Shown here piece by piece: positions 2,918 to 43,930 of a stretch of 44,550 nt of DNA. Source of the DNA: a phage. Numbering within the stretch: position 1 is the first letter of the stretch; every line of letters begins with the position of its first letter. The notes beneath the pieces are model-generated. The model did not search any database and was not told the DNA's origin. It saw only the letters and a program-made list of their open reading frames with translations. The DNA is taken from the sequence record PZ445417.1, one strand, 5' to 3'. The position numbers were made by a program, and so were the translations under genes.

Positions 2918-4004
2918 TCAATATATGGCGGACCGCATGATCCGCCGTCACATCTTCACCCAGCGCCTGAGCAATGACCAGGCGCGGAGGGTGTTGGCTA
3001 TGTGGGAGAAGTTCCGGCCCACGTTACTGGGTAAGCTGACCGAGTTACTTGATGGCAAAAAGTCCATGAACAACAAGGCACTTACCACTTTGTTAGCGCA
3101 ACTTGACAAGACCGTTAAAACAGAACTGCGCACCGAGTTTAAGGCGTTGGCTGAAAGCCTTCAGGAGTTCGCCGACACGGAGGCTGATTATCTCACCGAC
3201 ACATTAACGGCAGCGATCCAGCCGGTGGTCGCCGTACCGGCGGTCGAGGTGGTTGGCGTAGTGACCGGTGCGCAGATCGCAGCGACGGCAATGAAAAACC
3301 CGTTCCTGGGTAATACGATGATGCAATGGCCTGACTCACTTTCTGAGTGGACAAGGACGCAGATCGGCAATCAGGTGCGCGCCGGATTCATCCAGGGCAA
3401 GCCAACGACGGAAATTATCGCGGACGTGAGGCGCGCGCTAGGTGGTCGTAGTGCGCAAGCCATCTCAAGCGTTGTTAAGTCCGCAGTCAACCACTATGCG
3501 GCGACCGCCCGCGAACTAATGGTAAAAGCAAATGACGATATTCTCGAAGGTCGCCAATGGTTATCTACATTGGACACGCATACTTCTCCCATGTGCCAGC
3601 TACGCGATCGCCTGTTTTATCCGGTTGATGCTACTCCCGACACCAAAGGAAAGCGCGGCGGGAAAGTGGTGGCGGGATCACAATATGGCGCTGGTCCGGG
3701 CAAGCTACATTATTGCTGCCGTTCGACTGAGACGTGGAAAGTCAAAGGTATGGAAGACTGGCCCAGTGGTAAGCGTCCGGCACTGAAGGCTGACGCGGGT
3801 CGGTTGCTGAGTGAGCAGGCGGACGCGCAGACTGATTTCTTCTCATGGGTGCAGCGCCAGCCGCGCCATATCCTGGAAGAATTATACGGGGTGCAACGCG
3901 CCGACCAGATTATGCGCGGTGTGAAAGTGCCTAAGATGTTCACCGACACCGGCGAACTAATGACTATTGCACAGCTTAAAAACCGGGGGTTGTGGCGTGA
4001 TTAA
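2901..4004 (+). CDS. head morphogenesis protein (Mu gpF / SPP1 gp7-like minor head protein)
   Basis: 367-aa ORF overlapping the portal 3' end. Assigned by position after portal and by overall resemblance recalled from memory, not by search. Confidence 0.55.
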   Translation: MARTINQYMADRMIRRHIFTQRLSNDQARRVLAMWEKFRPTLLGKLTELLDGKKSMNNKALTTLLAQLDKTVKTELRTEFKALAESLQEFADTEADYLTDTLTAAIQPVVAVPAVEVVGVVTGAQIAATAMKNPFLGNTMMQWPDSLSEWTRTQIGNQVRAGFIQGKPTTEIIADVRRALGGRSAQAISSVVKSAVNHYAATARELMVKANDDILEGRQWLSTLDTHTSPMCQLRDRLFYPVDATPDTKGKRGGKVVAGSQYGAGPGKLHYCCRSTETWKVKGMEDWPSGKRPALKADAGRLLSEQADAQTDFFSWVQRQPRHILEELYGVQRADQIMRGVKVPKMFTDTGELMTIAQLKNRGLWRD

Positions 4005-4305
4005 GTATGCAGCGATTGGGTTGGTAATAGGTCTGGCGGTTGGATTCTGGCAGGGTAATTCCTACCGCGCGGGCGTTGTGGCGAGAGCGGCGCAAGAAGC
4101 GCAAGCCGAAGCCCAACGGCAGCAAACTAAAGTTATTGAGCGCTCCGCGCAGGCCGAACAAGCCCGCGATGTGGAATACCGGACTATCACGAAAGAGGTT
4201 GTGAAATATGTTACGCGTCCTAACCGTCCTGATTGTAGTTTTGATGCTGAGCGCGTGCGGATCAAGCAAAGCGCCATCGACGCCGCTAACCGAGTCGGTC
4301 TATAG
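3997..4305 (+). CDS. Rz: Rz-like i-spanin
   Basis: GTG start with GGGGG RBS. N-terminal TM segment YAAIGLVIGLAVGFW followed by an A/Q/E/R-rich coiled-coil region. Contains the embedded Rz1 ORF in another frame. Confidence 0.6.
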   Translation: MIKYAAIGLVIGLAVGFWQGNSYRAGVVARAAQEAQAEAQRQQTKVIERSAQAEQARDVEYRTITKEVVKYVTRPNRPDCSFDAERVRIKQSAIDAANRVGL

Positions 4306-4438
4306 GCCGCCTTGCACCTTTGAGAATGCCTCGGCAGACCCAGACGAAGACTTGCTGGTCGATGTTAAGAATATGGAATGTGGTGCGAAGCTGAGGGCGC
4401 AAGTGCTGGAGTTGCAGAAAATAATTCGGGGGCCGTGA
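4208..4438 (+). CDS. Rz1: Rz1-like o-spanin (outer-membrane lipoprotein)
   Basis: ATG with AAGAGG RBS. Signal peptide MLRVLTVLIVVLMLSAC with lipobox LSAC, proline-rich mature part. Starts inside Rz out of frame and runs past the Rz stop; its stop lies in the terminator hairpin. Confidence 0.6.
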   Translation: MLRVLTVLIVVLMLSACGSSKAPSTPLTESVYRPPCTFENASADPDEDLLVDVKNMECGAKLRAQVLELQKIIRGP

Positions 4439-4452
4439 AGGCCCCCTTTTTG
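4425..4452. terminator. rho-independent terminator, probably bidirectional
   Basis: GGGGGCC-gtgaa-GGCCCCC hairpin followed by TTTTTGTT on plus. It sits between convergent genes Rz1 (+) and 4453-5217 (-). Confidence 0.6.
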
Positions 4453-5217
4453 TTAGCGAGGAATACCGCAGATCTCGTTTAACGTCTTCACGTCCAGCGC
4501 CACCGCCGTGGACTTCGGCTTGTCAGGGTATGGAATGAACTGTTCCACTTCAGGCCACGCCTTGATCAGCTTCGTATCGGTATTGTGCATATCCAGCACG
4601 CCGGTAACGGTTAGTTTGAACGCGTCATACTTAGCTCGCAAATCGCGGCGGGCCTTGTCGTTACGGGCCAGTCGCTTACAGAAAGCATGATCTGCCGGGT
4701 AATCCACGCGACCGCGCGGAAGATATATCGGCAGCGCTTTCCCGTCCTCGTCCAATTCACACACTGACGCGAGCATCACTTCTTCGTATCCGGGTACAAT
4801 ATCGCCGAGGTCAGGCGCGAGCTTGTTCATGTATTTGATGTTCCAGTATCCGCGATGTGTGCGGTTTTGGTGTCCGTCGCCGCTCAATGACAAGGTGCGA
4901 ACATTACCGCCCGCGTTGATTTCGAATGTGGCGTCATAAACTCTTCCGATACCTTTCGGGTGGTCGGTGTTATTGCGATACGTCGCGAGGTTGGTGTAGA
5001 CGTGGACGCTGTACATGGGCGACTTGGCACCGTCTAGTGCTGCGATGTGTGTGCGTAACTCGGCGAAAGTGCGAATGCCTTTTGGCATACAGTCCAGCGT
5101 AATGGCGTACGCCAGGTCGCGAGAGTCCATCATGATTGATTTGGCTTCGGTAGCGATTTCATGGTCGCGCAGGATGTTAGCCAGAATCTGGTTTTTAATG
5201 TCTTTCGTCAGTCTCAT
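4453..5217 (-). CDS. hypothetical protein (254 aa), minus-strand insert in the head gene block
   Basis: Long ORF. Preferred start is the ATG at 5217 (MRLTKD...) with a GAGGA RBS; the track start at 5262 lacks one. Own upstream promoter-like motifs and a downstream hairpin. No recognisable motif. Confidence 0.6.
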   Translation of the reverse strand: MRLTKDIKNQILANILRDHEIATEAKSIMMDSRDLAYAITLDCMPKGIRTFAELRTHIAALDGAKSPMYSVHVYTNLATYRNNTDHPKGIGRVYDATFEINAGGNVRTLSLSGDGHQNRTHRGYWNIKYMNKLAPDLGDIVPGYEEVMLASVCELDEDGKALPIYLPRGRVDYPADHAFCKRLARNDKARRDLRAKYDAFKLTVTGVLDMHNTDTKLIKAWPEVEQFIPYPDKPKSTAVALDVKTLNEICGIPR

Positions 5218-5366: not shown

Positions 5367-6071
5367 ATGAAACTTACTAAAGCAGAATATGACGCGTTGC
5401 CGGAAGGTATGAAGGCGCTTTTTGTTGCCGATGGTGACGGGTATAAATCAACGTTCATGACCGCAGAAGAAGTACAGGCGGAAATCAAGGGTCTGAAAGA
5501 CAACAACGCTAAGCTGGTGAGCGAGAAGAAAGCAGAAGCCGAACGCCGCGCCGAAGCCGAGCGCCTTGCGAAAGAGAAAGAGGAAGCCGCCGCGCGCAAA
5601 AATGGCGACCTCGAAGCGATCGATAAGTCCTGGAAGGATAAGTTTGCGAAACACGAAGCAGACACATCGGGAAAAATCGAAGCCTACCGCAAGCAGATCC
5701 ACGACCTAACCATCGGCAGCGCTGCCAAAGACCTGGCCTCGAAGCTGTTCGGTAAGAATGCTGGGATCATGCAACGCCACGTAATGGACCGCCTGACGCT
5801 GGAAGACGGAGAAGACGGCAGCTTGAAAGTGCGTGTCTTGCAGGATGGCAAACCGTCCGCGCTGACGATGGAAGAGCTTGAAAAAGAGTTCCGTCATAAC
5901 GCCGATTTTGCATCCGTCCTGGCTGGCACGCCAGCCGGTGGCGCGCCTAGCAAACCGACGCAGGTTGTCGAAGATGTGAAGTCGAAAATCACTATGGGCC
6001 ATAGCTTCGGTATCACTGACCTTACAAAACAGGCGGGGGATATCATCGCGAAGATGGGCGACGACGAGTAA
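5367..6071 (+). CDS. putative scaffolding protein
   Basis: 234 aa from the ATG at 5367 (RBS GGGGGA). Charged helical region AEAERRAEAERLAKEKEEAAARK. Lies immediately upstream of the major capsid gene. Confidence 0.5.
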   Translation: MKLTKAEYDALPEGMKALFVADGDGYKSTFMTAEEVQAEIKGLKDNNAKLVSEKKAEAERRAEAERLAKEKEEAAARKNGDLEAIDKSWKDKFAKHEADTSGKIEAYRKQIHDLTIGSAAKDLASKLFGKNAGIMQRHVMDRLTLEDGEDGSLKVRVLQDGKPSALTMEELEKEFRHNADFASVLAGTPAGGAPSKPTQVVEDVKSKITMGHSFGITDLTKQAGDIIAKMGDDE

Positions 6072-21071: not shown

Positions 21072-21092
21072 AAGCCCCTTTCGGGGCTTATT
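21072..21092. terminator. bidirectional terminator
   Basis: AAGCCCC-tttc-GGGGCTT hairpin with an A-run upstream and T-rich downstream, between convergent genes. Confidence 0.6.
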
Positions 21093-21306
21093 TGCAGGTT
21101 GTGCTTTTGAAGTGGTCAACTGACACATACTGGAAGTTAAACGGGTAGCCAGCCATGAGCATTTTGTGACCGCTAAAATCTGCGACCCCAAACACAGGGA
21201 CGGAATACTCCATGTCGCTATTCAGGTATGTCGCGTCGCAGATTTTAGACGGCATAGTGGAACAACCGGACAAAAGAACCGCACAAATCATAATTAAAGT
21301 TTTCAT
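21088..21306 (-). CDS. small lipoprotein, candidate superinfection-exclusion protein (Cor/Llp-like)
   Basis: 72 aa from the ATG at 21306. Signal peptide MKTLIMICAVLLSGC with lipobox LSGC and a Cys-containing mature part. Minus-strand gene between the J-like and fibre genes with its own promoter-like motif and terminator. Confidence 0.55.
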   Translation of the reverse strand: MKTLIMICAVLLSGCSTMPSKICDATYLNSDMEYSVPVFGVADFSGHKMLMAGYPFNFQYVSVDHFKSTTCK

Positions 21307-33465: not shown

Positions 33466-34888
33466 TGCTTAAGTCCTCGTCAGTAGCTACAGACCACGCA
33501 GGGCGCGGGTCGTCGATGGGTGCTAATACCGGTTTAGCCGGTGCGCGCGTGATTTTATCACACAACTTGGCCCACACTTTCGGCTTCTCGTCCTTCAATA
33601 CCTTCTCGGCGTCGGTAGGACTGAGTAATGTTTCTTTGTACATCACGTCGCGCTTGATCCGGGCCTTCGTGAAGATTTCAATCACTTCGCTTTCGTCCGC
33701 CCACTTGCGGATCCCTTCCTTACCGGCAACCATCTTGAGGCCCAGCGCTTCGCCATCGCCAGCCATAACCGCCTTGAATACCGCGGACTCGATAGCCTTG
33801 ATGTGCTGGCGCATTGCGTCTAGACCTTCATATGCCTTGCGCAGTTCCGCGGCGGTCATAGCGCCGGGGGCCGCTTCTTTCTTGCCACGCTTCGCACGTC
33901 GTGCCGCTTTGCGGGCTTCGCGGGCCATATTGCGGTCGTGATTGGCGCATTCTTCCTCTGTCGCAATACTCACGTCGTCGCCCAGGTCTTCGTCTGTTGC
34001 CGTTGGAGGGGTCATCGTGTCGATTGCGGCCTTAGCGCGTGCACTACACTGATCCGCAAATCGGCACCACTGACACGCATCAACGCTCGGTCGGAAGTCG
34101 GCACGGGTGAGTCCTTTCTTACCTCGGGCGTACGCTTCCAGGGCGGAGATAGCACGCTTGGACGCAAACTTCGCGAATATCTCCAGGGCTTCTACCGAAA
34201 TATCCCACTCCGACGCCCCGCCGCAATACGGCTGGAAGATAACAAGGCGCACGGTCGTGATGTCGTACATGGATTGCAGCTTGCGCAGCAGGCCGAGCGC
34301 GTACAGCATAAGCTGTTTGTTTTCTTTCGCCTCGACCTTATGCCGCCCCGTCTTCAGGTCGCCAACAATCAGCATGTACGTGCCGTCGGTCTTCTTCATG
34401 ACCATGACCATATCCGCAGTGCCGAACGTCTTAACCCGGTTGCCGTCGATCTCGAAGCCTGAGTGAAGGACGCGGGTCAGATCGGCGCGCATCTCAAGCT
34501 GAACAAACTCCGCCACTTCGAGGAGCGGTCGCCAGTGGTCGATGTACGCGTCGCACTGTTTCACCATGTCGTCGTTGACCAGTACGCCGCCTTTCGGTGC
34601 TTTCGGGTGGGCCTTTACCGGCCCCTTACCTTCGTTCTCGACGTAGCACCCTTTGTACGTCTTAGCGGTTATCAGCTTCTCACCGGCGATAATACGGTTG
34701 AGAACGACTTCAGATACGGTGTGCATACTCGTACCGTTAATCGCCGCTTGCCCGGATTCGTTCGGGATATCTTTTTCCACCACCAGGGCGGCAGGGCAAC
34801 CCATCCATTTTTTAGCACCGGATGGCCCGAGTAATGAATGTTCCGTATTACTACCGGATTGCGTTTTACGTTTTGGTTTAATCGCCAT
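33458..34888 (-). CDS. Cas4/RecB-like exonuclease (PD-(D/E)xK with Fe-S cysteines)
   Basis: 476 aa. N-terminal Cys (WMGCPA) plus C-terminal cluster C-x2-C-x5-C (CQWCRFADQC) as in Cas4/AddB-type nucleases. Adjacent to the SSB-like gene. Confidence 0.6.
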   Translation of the reverse strand: MAIKPKRKTQSGSNTEHSLLGPSGAKKWMGCPAALVVEKDIPNESGQAAINGTSMHTVSEVVLNRIIAGEKLITAKTYKGCYVENEGKGPVKAHPKAPKGGVLVNDDMVKQCDAYIDHWRPLLEVAEFVQLEMRADLTRVLHSGFEIDGNRVKTFGTADMVMVMKKTDGTYMLIVGDLKTGRHKVEAKENKQLMLYALGLLRKLQSMYDITTVRLVIFQPYCGGASEWDISVEALEIFAKFASKRAISALEAYARGKKGLTRADFRPSVDACQWCRFADQCSARAKAAIDTMTPPTATDEDLGDDVSIATEEECANHDRNMAREARKAARRAKRGKKEAAPGAMTAAELRKAYEGLDAMRQHIKAIESAVFKAVMAGDGEALGLKMVAGKEGIRKWADESEVIEIFTKARIKRDVMYKETLLSPTDAEKVLKDEKPKVWAKLCDKITRAPAKPVLAPIDDPRPAWSVATDEDLSNE

Positions 34889-35069
34889 TATTCCACCCGT
34901 GTAAACTGGACAATTACATATTTGCAGATATTAGCCAAGCCCGCTTTTTCGACACGTCTGTGCACTTCACGCTGCGCATCGGTCCAGCACGTCTAGGCGT
35001 CCTTGTTAATAACAATAAAAGAAGTGTGGTCGTTTAATTCGTGGCATGTTGCCAGCACGAAGAATTTCA

Positions 35070-41266: not shown

Positions 41267-41302
41267 AGTCCCAGTGAGCTAAAACTTACTGGGACTTTTT
41301 TT
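41267..41302 (+). terminator. rho-independent terminator abutting the holin start
   Basis: AGTCCCAGT-12 nt loop-ACTGGGACT hairpin followed by T7; the holin ATG follows immediately. Confidence 0.6.
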
Positions 41303-41593
41303 ATGGATAAGCTAAACGAGTGGTTATTTGCCATCGCATGTCTGGCTGGCGGCTTCGTAGGCGCACGCATTCATGGCGAGGCAACGAAGGGGCCGCTAAA
41401 CTTCGTTTTATATATCGTAGTTGGCTTCCTGTGTGCCATATTTGGTGCACCAGCTATCGCCGAGTGGGCGGGCTTATCGGGCGAGCGCACGGTCGCCGGT
41501 TTGGGCTTCGTAACTGCAATCTTCTGGATGCCAATAGCCGCCCGGATCAGGGAGACTATTGCGTCGTTCCGACTTCCGGGGGGCGCAAAATGA
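41303..41593 (+). CDS. putative holin (three transmembrane segments)
   Basis: 96 aa with three hydrophobic segments and a charged C-terminus; lies two genes upstream of the endolysin. Confidence 0.5.
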   Translation: MDKLNEWLFAIACLAGGFVGARIHGEATKGPLNFVLYIVVGFLCAIFGAPAIAEWAGLSGERTVAGLGFVTAIFWMPIAARIRETIASFRLPGGAK

Positions 41594-41835
41594 TTATCTC
41601 CGTCCTGTTGTTTGTTATCATAGGGGCTTCGTCCCTGTTTAACGTGTATGCGCCGTCCGTTCAGGATGGCATTTTAGGCCGGGTGTTATATCTGCTAACG
41701 GCGATGATCTGCGTTATCGGATTGTTGCAAACAGGAGACGTATCTGACACCACCTGGACCGCGTTAATCTGGCTGTTTGCATTGCGCACGCTGCGTAATG
41801 CTGTTTTGAATGGGGTAAAACATGCGATTCAGTGA
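41590..41835 (+). CDS. small membrane protein (81 aa), possible second holin or antiholin
   Basis: ATG overlapping the holin stop (ATGA). Two hydrophobic segments. Overlaps the endolysin start. Confidence 0.45.
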   Translation: MIISVLLFVIIGASSLFNVYAPSVQDGILGRVLYLLTAMICVIGLLQTGDVSDTTWTALIWLFALRTLRNAVLNGVKHAIQ

Positions 41836-42313
41836 TAACGGTCTCCGATTTACGGCAGCATGGGAGACTTTCAGCCCAGTGCCGTATTTCGCGACGAAGA
41901 AAGAGCAGGCCCGCGGCCTGTACACCTGGGGCTATGGTCACACCGGCACTAATCCGCCGCGGAGCATTACCCGTGCAGAAGCGCTGGAGCTGCTCAAGCG
42001 AGATGTGGCGTATGCTGAGGACTGGGTGAACAAATACGCCCATAAGAGCATTAACCAGGCGCAATTTGACGCGCTGGTTGACCTGGTAATCAATGCTGGT
42101 CAAGGTCCGATCATGCCGGACGACGTCGCCGGTGACTTCGACGATGCTGTCCGCCTGGGTGACTGGGCGAAGGTCCGTGCTACTCTGCCACAGTTCCGCA
42201 AGCAAGGCGGGGAAGTGCTGAAAGGGCTGGTCCGCCGAGCAATCGGCAGACAAGCGCTATTTGATGGTAAGCAGTGGGACGTTGCCGAGAAAATCGGACG
42301 TAACGCAGCATAA
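41822..42313 (+). CDS. endolysin (phage lysozyme, glycoside hydrolase 24-like)
   Basis: 163 aa. N-terminal region LRFTAAWETFSPVPYF...GLYTWGYGHT matches the catalytic region pattern of P22/T4-type lysozymes (from memory). Confidence 0.65.
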   Translation: MRFSDNGLRFTAAWETFSPVPYFATKKEQARGLYTWGYGHTGTNPPRSITRAEALELLKRDVAYAEDWVNKYAHKSINQAQFDALVDLVINAGQGPIMPDDVAGDFDDAVRLGDWAKVRATLPQFRKQGGEVLKGLVRRAIGRQALFDGKQWDVAEKIGRNAA

Positions 42314-42329
42314 TACGGGGTAACACAGT

Positions 42330-42491
42330 ATGTTAAAAAGTATTCTTGATCATAACGCCGACGCGCTCGCTGCGCTGGCTAAAACCGAAGACCCAGGCGC
42401 ACGCGCCATTATCGCGGACACAATCAGTCATGCGGGTGTCTTTGATGCGAAGCTGCCGAGTCCGCCACCGTCCGCAGAGCCAGAAGAGTAA
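42330..42491 (+). CDS. small hypothetical protein (53 aa)
   Basis: ATG ORF after the endolysin, ending just before a terminator. Confidence 0.3.
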   Translation: MLKSILDHNADALAALAKTEDPGARAIIADTISHAGVFDAKLPSPPPSAEPEE

Positions 42492-42497
42492 ACCACA

Positions 42498-42524
42498 AGC
42501 CCGGTAATTCCGGGCTTTTTATTT
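42498..42524 (+). terminator. rho-independent terminator
   Basis: AGCCCGG-taatt-CCGGGCT hairpin followed by TTTTTATTT. Confidence 0.7.
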
Positions 42525-42585: not shown

Positions 42586-42666
42586 ATGGCACGTAATGAT
42601 ATTTGGGTATTGGCAATCTGGTCCGCCGCGGCATTTATCGGTATGGTTATTTGCGAATTGCTATAA
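42586..42666 (+). CDS. very small hydrophobic peptide (26 aa)
   Basis: ATG with strong AGAGGAG RBS at 9-nt spacing. Sequence MARNDIWVLAIWSAAAFIGMVICELL is a single predicted transmembrane helix. Preceded by ATTGGT(T/C)GCA motifs. Confidence 0.25.
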   Translation: MARNDIWVLAIWSAAAFIGMVICELL

Positions 42667-43870: not shown

Positions 43871-43901
43871 CGGCGACCCGTAACCCTCCCAGCCTGCCGA
43901 T

Positions 43902-43930
43902 TTGGTGGGCTTTTTTGTGCCTGTTATAAT
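43902..43930 (+). promoter_or_regulatory. extended -10 promoter upstream of the small terminase gene
   Basis: TTGGTG, 17 bp, TGT-TATAAT. Confidence 0.4.

Follow-up and report, generated by a model that had tools for sequence, protein, structure and literature searches.

Two-component spanins of the overlapped class have been catalogued for phages HK578, EP23, JL1, SO-1, SSL-2009a, and EK99P-1, which were assigned to the 'Jersey' family (Kongari et al. 2018, PMC6139136). This family has two constant cysteines in the o-spanin and a variable extreme C-terminus of the i-spanin, and in a subfamily reaching from EP23 to SO-1 the i-spanin is shorter and has two helices (PMC6139136). Spanin genes that lie apart from the other lysis genes are also documented. 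The spanins of T4 are unlinked to holin and endolysin (PMC6139136), and the 2019 genome announcement of the Guernseyvirinae-like phage Schulenberg states that the holin/antiholin and endolysin genes are "genetically separate" from the spanins (PMC6763661). In Jerseyvirus SeF1 the spanins (phrog_2536/5672) are reported to be Gp_009/010 and the holins and endolysin Gp_063-065 (PMC9409062). Here we analyze the corresponding gene pair, Rz and Rz1, at positions 3997-4438 of PZ445417.1, a stretch of 44,550 nucleotides (the window) that represents the complete, circularly mapped genome of a Dhillonvirus, an HK578-like E. coli siphophage. The pair very probably constitutes a two-component spanin of the overlapped class and of the Jersey family. 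A preliminary description of the window had placed an Rz/Rz1 pair at exactly these coordinates, and the targeting signals, PHROG families, and selection patterns reported below agree with that assignment. Neither the pair nor its split position is new, since both have been annotated, catalogued, and described for this phage group.

The upstream gene (3997-4305, plus strand, GTG start) encodes an i-spanin (Rz-like) of 102 amino acids with the hydrophobic N-terminus MIKYAAIGLVIGLAVGFWQG. Hydropathy analysis located a transmembrane segment at approximately residues 3-20 (nucleotides 4003-4056), within a hydrophobic stretch of residues 1-20 for which the Kyte-Doolittle score over 15 residues reached its maximum of 2.05 at residue 1. 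The same scan found no second hydrophobic segment. The protein thus has a single N-terminal transmembrane segment, followed by what would be a periplasmic C-terminal domain with two predicted helices and a single cysteine, Cys80. A single-sequence AF2 model (pLDDT 66) has a long helix from residue 3 to 72, which comprises the membrane anchor together with helix 1, and a second helix at residues 84-99, with a break in between (residues 73-83) around the cysteine. This helical two-helix domain with a linker, predicted with low-to-moderate confidence, agrees with the published description of the EP23-to-SO-1 subfamily. The i-spanin matched phrog_2536, labeled 'Rz-like spanin', with an E-value of 1.2e-34, and is 88% identical to the spanin of phage EP23 and 39-44% identical to the i-spanins of Jersey (Shelanagig), K1G, and SP-031.

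The second gene (4208-4438, plus strand, ATG start) encodes an o-spanin (Rz1-like), a prolipoprotein of 76 amino acids. As had been described before, it starts inside Rz in another frame and runs past the Rz stop; it is read in the +1 frame relative to the i-spanin, overlaps it by 98 nucleotides, and extends 133 nucleotides beyond. This arrangement had been called embedded, a term that applies to the lambda case (PMC6139136), and the pair is properly classified as overlapped. A Shine-Dalgarno sequence, AAGAGG, lies at 4193-4198 on the plus strand, 9 nucleotides before the ATG and within the i-spanin coding sequence, where that protein has the motif KEVVKYV. The N-terminus, MLRVLTVLIVVLMLSAC followed by GSS, comprises a basic residue, a hydrophobic core, and the lipobox L-S-A-C (nucleotides 4247-4258). 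By pattern match only, this is a signal peptidase II signal, with residues 1-16 as the signal peptide, cleavage before Cys17, and Gly instead of Asp at the +2 position. The mature protein would consist of 60 amino acids and contains Cys36 and Cys58. While the lipobox noted in the preliminary description holds up, its proline-rich body does not, as only 6 of the 60 mature residues are proline (10%) and the longest run is PP. The o-spanin matched phrog_5672 (1.2e-25) and phrog_1267 (2.5e-12), both labeled Rz-like spanin, and shares 33-45% identity with the o-spanins of Shelanagig, K1G, and SP-031. In its single-sequence AF2 model the signal peptide is helical, and a disordered linker leads to another helix near the C-terminus (residues 50-73). 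A unimolecular spanin of the T1 gp11 type was considered and rejected, as Rz1 is hydrophobic only in its signal peptide and has a charged C-terminus, and the one further credible lipobox open reading frame (21088-21306) matches the Cor exclusion family.

To describe conservation of the pair, a 450-nucleotide segment of the window was aligned with 16 Dhillonvirus genomes that are 84-93% identical to it, giving 17 sequences in total. Both open reading frames are intact in 17/17 sequences. The start codons, the Shine-Dalgarno sequence, Cys80 of Rz, and Cys17, Cys36, and Cys58 of Rz1 are invariant, and the transmembrane segment of the i-spanin is kept throughout. The lipobox, LSAC in the window and [LM]SAC over the alignment, and the Gly that follows it are likewise invariant, and its cysteine aligns with the lipobox cysteine of Jersey, K1G, and SP-031. 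Cys80 of Rz and both Cys36 and Cys58 of Rz1 are retained not only in Dhillonvirus but also in the Guernseyvirinae homologues, so that conserved cysteines would be available for disulfide formation.

The distribution of variable sites follows the two reading frames. Before the overlap, 15, 7, and 36 variable sites occur at codon positions 1, 2, and 3 of the Rz frame, and the ratio of nonsynonymous to synonymous polymorphism (pN/pS) is 0.13 in this frame compared to 1.3 and 2.0 in the other two. Past the Rz stop the wobble periodicity shifts to the Rz1 frame, where the corresponding counts are 9, 4, and 28, with 28 of 44 third positions variable. There pN/pS is 0.11 in the Rz1 frame and 7.2 and 5.0 in the others. 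Inside the overlap the Rz frame is dominant with a pN/pS of 0.27 against 0.84 for the Rz1 frame, the signal peptide being more tolerant. Both frames are under purifying selection. Conservation of the i-spanin is strongest in the motif ITxEVVKYVxxP, which is encoded where the o-spanin has its Shine-Dalgarno sequence and start codon (window 4186-4216). Dual coding alone does not explain this conservation, since FSL SP-031 retains the motif with an overlap of only 8 nucleotides. On the nucleotide level the spanin segment is 84.5-92.8% identical among Dhillonvirus loci (L001-L019), compared to 91.7-95.0% for the head-morphogenesis gene and 92.6-97.6% for the scaffold gene, and thus diverges more than both flanking genes.

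Some of this variation concerns the C-terminus of the i-spanin. The form of 102 amino acids ending in NRVGL is found in the window and 5 relatives, and a form of 109 amino acids ending in GVGTATAVQVR is found in 11 (window 4285-4326; relatives L007, L009-L015, and L017-L019). Compared to these 11 of 16 relatives, the window i-spanin is without the last 7 residues (a TATAVQVR-type tail). The longer tail can be aligned to the AAAVQNGIAK tail found in Jersey and K1G, which makes the window allele look like a form truncated by 7 residues at the C-terminus. Differences between the two groups of alleles extend, in a correlated manner, to the central part of the o-spanin.

Relatives were collected by a scan of viral_contigs, which gave 14 related loci, all Dhillonvirus, and by a tblastn search of a phage collection for more distant ones. 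The Dhillonvirus spanins of HK578, EP23, JL1, SO-1, SSL-2009a, and KarlBarth occupy the same position, with genes of 309 and 231 nucleotides placed alike relative to the head-morphogenesis gene, and are 88-92% identical to the window proteins. The shortened i-spanin tail is the only feature that sets the window pair apart from them. In phage KarlBarth the two collinear genes (bas17_0005/0006) are annotated as i-spanin and o-spanin in GenBank. Both window proteins show significant similarity to members of the Jersey family, and the pair belongs to its shorter EP23-to-SO-1 subfamily. The Guernseyvirinae examined, i.e. Jerseyvirus Shelanagig, Kagunavirus K1G, and Cornellvirus FSL SP-031, have homologous pairs (33-45% identity) with the same invariant cysteines, which also lie apart from holin and endolysin. 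Their i-spanins are longer, with about 118-128 amino acids, and the overlap varies from 155 nucleotides in Jersey to 8 nucleotides in SP-031, as compared to 98 nucleotides in the window. In addition, a decoration-protein gene stands between head morphogenesis and spanins in these phages. Past the o-spanin, Shelanagig and K1G have no convergent minus-strand gene and SP-031 has a small one, and no terminator is annotated at this place in Shelanagig.

A contiguous arrangement of the same families occurs in two Klebsiella lambdoid phages. In Kp4862-1 the overlapped pair (phrog_2536, 6e-47; phrog_5672, 2e-22) is 40% and 30% identical to the window proteins and, unlike in the window, forms part of a classical layout in which a Q-like antiterminator, holin, endolysin, i-spanin, and o-spanin are contiguous. 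KpnBHU6 has the same contiguous holin-endolysin-spanin order. The position of the family right after holin and endolysin in these cassettes supports a spanin function; where the lysis genes are contiguous, the family is thus the one found in the place of the spanins.

The window pair resembles lambda Rz/Rz1 in combining a predicted type II inner-membrane protein with a putative outer-membrane lipoprotein encoded in the +1 frame and in having periplasmic cysteines. No sequence similarity to the lambda pair was detectable, with no Pfam match at an E-value of 0.1 or better. Lambda has a fully embedded Rz1 whose product is rich in proline, including a penta-proline stretch, and devoid of helix (PMC6139136). 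The window Rz1 reaches beyond Rz, has a proline content of 10%, and is predicted to form a helix at its end. Furthermore, the lambda pair directly follows S and R, which the window pair does not. T4 PseT.3/PseT.2, which share the unlinked position, are of the separated class and of a different sequence family, and their function was shown by complementation, while a spanin function of the window pair is predicted from sequence.

The remaining lysis genes of the window are located at 41303-42313, as had been proposed, and were identified by PHROG and Pfam matches. Two holin genes on the plus strand encode a holin of 96 amino acids (41303-41593; phrog_2359 holin, 1.1e-31) and a second holin or antiholin of 81 amino acids (41590-41835; phrog_2508 holin, 1.1e-26). 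They are followed by an endolysin of the lysozyme family (163 amino acids; 41822-42313, plus strand) that matched PF00959 (4e-21) and phrog_7 endolysin (1.2e-35). In the clockwise direction, 6233 nucleotides separate the endolysin stop and the start of Rz. The map is circular, as the stop codon of the plus-strand small terminase subunit gene TerS (44000 to window end) spans the window junction; its TAA consists of the last two bases of the window and base 1, the latter also being the A in the start codon ATG of TerL, the large terminase subunit gene. The 6233-nucleotide stretch contains, all on the plus strand, two small open reading frames and five annotated genes, namely phosphoesterase, TerS, TerL, portal, and head morphogenesis. 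These are the genes that the preliminary description had listed as separating the two groups, and a contiguous holin-endolysin-spanin cassette does not exist in the window.

The preliminary description had also named a complete spanin pair next to the endolysin as an observation that would speak against its proposal. Scanning all six frames of the 44.5 kb window for a lipobox revealed neither a lipobox open reading frame near the endolysin nor any other spanin candidate in the genome. Three matches were obtained, corresponding to Rz1, a Cor-type lipoprotein, and an antisense open reading frame. The Cor-type protein, a lipoprotein of 72 amino acids (MKTLIMICAVLLSGC...) encoded between tail genes at 21088-21306 on the minus strand, matched phrog_1119 (5e-26), the Cor family of superinfection-exclusion proteins, and is the one credible lipobox open reading frame besides Rz1. 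The third match, at 34698-34904, was rejected as spurious, being antisense to a long minus-strand gene and having a TTG start. The two small plus-strand open reading frames downstream of the endolysin, 42330-42491 and 42586-42666, were likewise considered as a second spanin or outer-membrane disruptor and rejected for lack of a lipobox and of a family match. The former encodes an acidic protein of 53 amino acids without transmembrane segment and the latter a hydrophobic peptide of 26 amino acids (MARNDIWVLAIWSAAAFIGMVICELL); neither has a Pfam match.

The split layout is shared by the relatives, a check that the preliminary description had suggested. Of the 157 Dhillonvirus records that matched a 3.5-kb query comprising head morphogenesis, spanins, and scaffold, 139 had a single match over at least 80% of the query. 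Identity to many Escherichia Dhillonvirus phages in these 3.5 kb amounts to 92-93.5%. A homologous pair is present between the head-morphogenesis and scaffold genes in Jerseyvirus, Kagunavirus, and Cornellvirus as well.

At its downstream end the pair runs into a hairpin with a T-run (4428-4451) that scores as an intrinsic terminator on both strands. The hairpin, GGGGGCC-GTGAA-GGCCCCC at 4428-4446, has a G+C stem of 7 base pairs and a loop of 5 nucleotides and is followed by TTTTT; its minimum free energy is -22.9 kcal/mol (z -2.46). On the minus strand it faces the convergent Nmad5 gene. The Rz1 TGA (4436-4438) is in the loop, in line with the earlier observation that the stop lies inside the terminator hairpin. 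All 17 genomes have the hairpin. A change from G-C to A-T occurs at the base of the stem, and the loop invariably holds the stop codon, be it TGA or TAA. From these sequence features the hairpin probably acts as a terminator. Further plus-strand terminator-like hairpins occur at 41267-41296, just before the holin gene, at 42497-42517, after the endolysin unit, and at 43891-43911, after the phosphoesterase gene. These three strong hairpins, which bracket the holin-endolysin unit and the phosphoesterase, suggest that the packaging operon is preceded by three short transcription units. A consensus scan found no plus-strand terminator-like site between 43912 and 4428. The spanin genes would thus be the last genes of a TerS-TerL-portal-head morphogenesis-Rz-Rz1 unit, apart from the holin-endolysin unit. 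At the upstream end of the pair, the Rz start codon GTG and the head-morphogenesis stop codon overlap (GTGATTAA). This overlap and a GGGGG ribosome-binding stretch at 3985-3989 (together 3985-4004, plus strand) are kept in 17/17 genomes, and the overlap suggests possible translational coupling between the head-morphogenesis gene and the i-spanin.

Several observations weigh against identification of the pair as a Jersey-family spanin with its own place in the packaging operon. The curated spanin models of Pfam and NCBIfam gave no match above threshold. For Rz1, no Pfam family was found at an E-value of 0.1 or better, and for Rz there was only an insignificant match to DUF7168; the Pfam Rz and Rz1 models presumably represent the lambda Rz/Rz1 sequence families. 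In NCBIfam nothing exceeded the threshold for either protein, the match of P2_Rz1 to Rz1 having an E-value of 0.03 and 14.4 bits versus a cutoff of 27. The sub-threshold NCBIfam matches to Rz1 were nearly all to lipoprotein families and aligned mainly over the signal peptide, and a sequence search of the PDB with Rz gave nothing meaningful. The literature searched contained no experimental test of any Jersey-family spanin. The positive-inside rule is ambiguous for Rz, which has a very short N-terminus, and the single-sequence AF2 models have low confidence (pLDDT 57-66) and were used for secondary structure only. Finally, the delineation of the transcription units derives solely from consensus scans.

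The unmatched curated models and the lack of experimental validation in the literature searched would also fit a membrane protein and a lipoprotein with a role outside lysis, such as superinfection exclusion or an accessory function in head assembly. Such a role would explain the location between head-morphogenesis and scaffold genes, with possible translational coupling to the former. The Klebsiella cassettes, in which the same two families take the spanin slot behind holin and endolysin, together with the absence of any other spanin from the window, make this very unlikely, as the genome would otherwise have no spanin. Moreover, a dedicated exclusion lipoprotein of the Cor type is encoded elsewhere (21088-21306), and the periplasmic cysteines and the helix pattern fit the spanin rules (PMC6139136). 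One might further suppose that only the first open reading frame is a gene and that Rz1 is a chance open frame over the end of Rz and the spacer behind it. Rz1 is indeed short with 76 amino acids, remains uncalled or truncated in many database records, and has a pN/pS of 0.84 within the overlap. Past the Rz stop, however, the low pN/pS in its frame, compared to values of 5-7 in the others, and the 28 variable sites among 44 third positions are those of a coding sequence, so that the selection analysis effectively excludes this explanation. The invariant ATG, Shine-Dalgarno sequence, lipobox, and three cysteines, which are conserved even in phages with only 33-45% identity, and the matches to PHROG o-spanin families argue in the same direction.

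The third explanation concerns the layout rather than the function of the genes, and holds that the split is a recent or unusual rearrangement of this phage and represents a novel lysis organization. The distance of 6.2 kb to holin and endolysin, the three terminator-like hairpins around their unit, and the contiguous genes of the Klebsiella relatives could be read in this way. Synteny practically rules out such a phage-specific event, since at least 139 Dhillonvirus records are collinear (at least 80% coverage) and the same position recurs in Jerseyvirus, Kagunavirus, and Cornellvirus. The separation is also in print for Schulenberg (PMC6763661), and unlinked spanins are textbook knowledge for T4 (PMC6139136). 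Dhillonvirus-specific remarks on the location of the spanins were confined to routine listings in the literature searched.

The preliminary description had located the pair between the head-morphogenesis and scaffold genes. This is correct for its position in the head gene block, but a minus-strand gene, Nmad5 (about 4453-5217; PF18757, 1.6e-51), also separates Rz1 from the scaffold gene (5367-6071). Nmad5 is oriented toward the spanin terminator and is preceded by a sigma-70-like promoter at 5276-5247. In 4 of 16 Dhillonvirus relatives (L011, L014, L016, and L018; about 3460-4020) Nmad5 is unmatched in this slot. In the two that were inspected, L011 and L016, it is replaced by a different gene of about 170 amino acids with a weak match to the DNA polymerase III beta-clamp central domain (PF02767, 4e-5, below the cutoff; motif ATDGHRLF). 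The slot looks like a variable cargo slot within the head gene block.

The annotation of the spanin pair is inconsistent, with one or both genes labeled hypothetical in many records. In the RefSeq entry of phage Envy (L002, 3281-3439) the o-spanin is called as a protein of 52 amino acids without signal peptide and lipobox. The phrog_5672 profile, with 47 positions, matches o-spanin residues 32-76 only and leaves the signal peptide uncovered.

If the two-component spanin functions as in the lambda model, the i-spanin would be anchored in the inner membrane via its N-terminal transmembrane helix and extend its helical domain into the periplasm. Lipidated at Cys17 and with Gly instead of Asp at +2, the o-spanin would be directed to the outer membrane and reside in its inner leaflet. 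Binding between both proteins would involve their C-terminal regions, and the conserved cysteines may allow formation of disulfide-linked complexes that are threaded through the peptidoglycan. By analogy, such complexes would be caged and inactive until endolysin released by the holin removes the peptidoglycan, and the freed complexes would then fuse or disrupt the outer membrane. Since the timing would be set by holin and endolysin and the trigger would act after translation, linkage of the spanin genes to the other lysis genes would be unneeded and late expression from the packaging/head operon sufficient.

A more far-reaching scenario, which we consider unlikely, is that the position of the spanin pair is not neutral. 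The genes would have left a holin-endolysin-spanin cassette of the lambdoid type, such as the Klebsiella relatives retain, for the 3' end of the packaging/head operon, either in a common ancestor of Dhillonvirus and Guernseyvirinae or with later exchange between these groups. The overlap with the head gene and a terminator of its own would then control how much spanin is made and when, without dependence on the holin-endolysin unit. If true, the layout would represent a form of regulation that matters functionally for lysis. For the spanin identification itself, the importance beyond annotation quality is small. Annotation errors such as hypothetical labels and a truncated o-spanin can make Dhillonvirus look spanin-less in automated surveys. 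Despite the split, the analysis confirms a complete lysis set for this phage, comprising two holins, an endolysin, and a two-component spanin.

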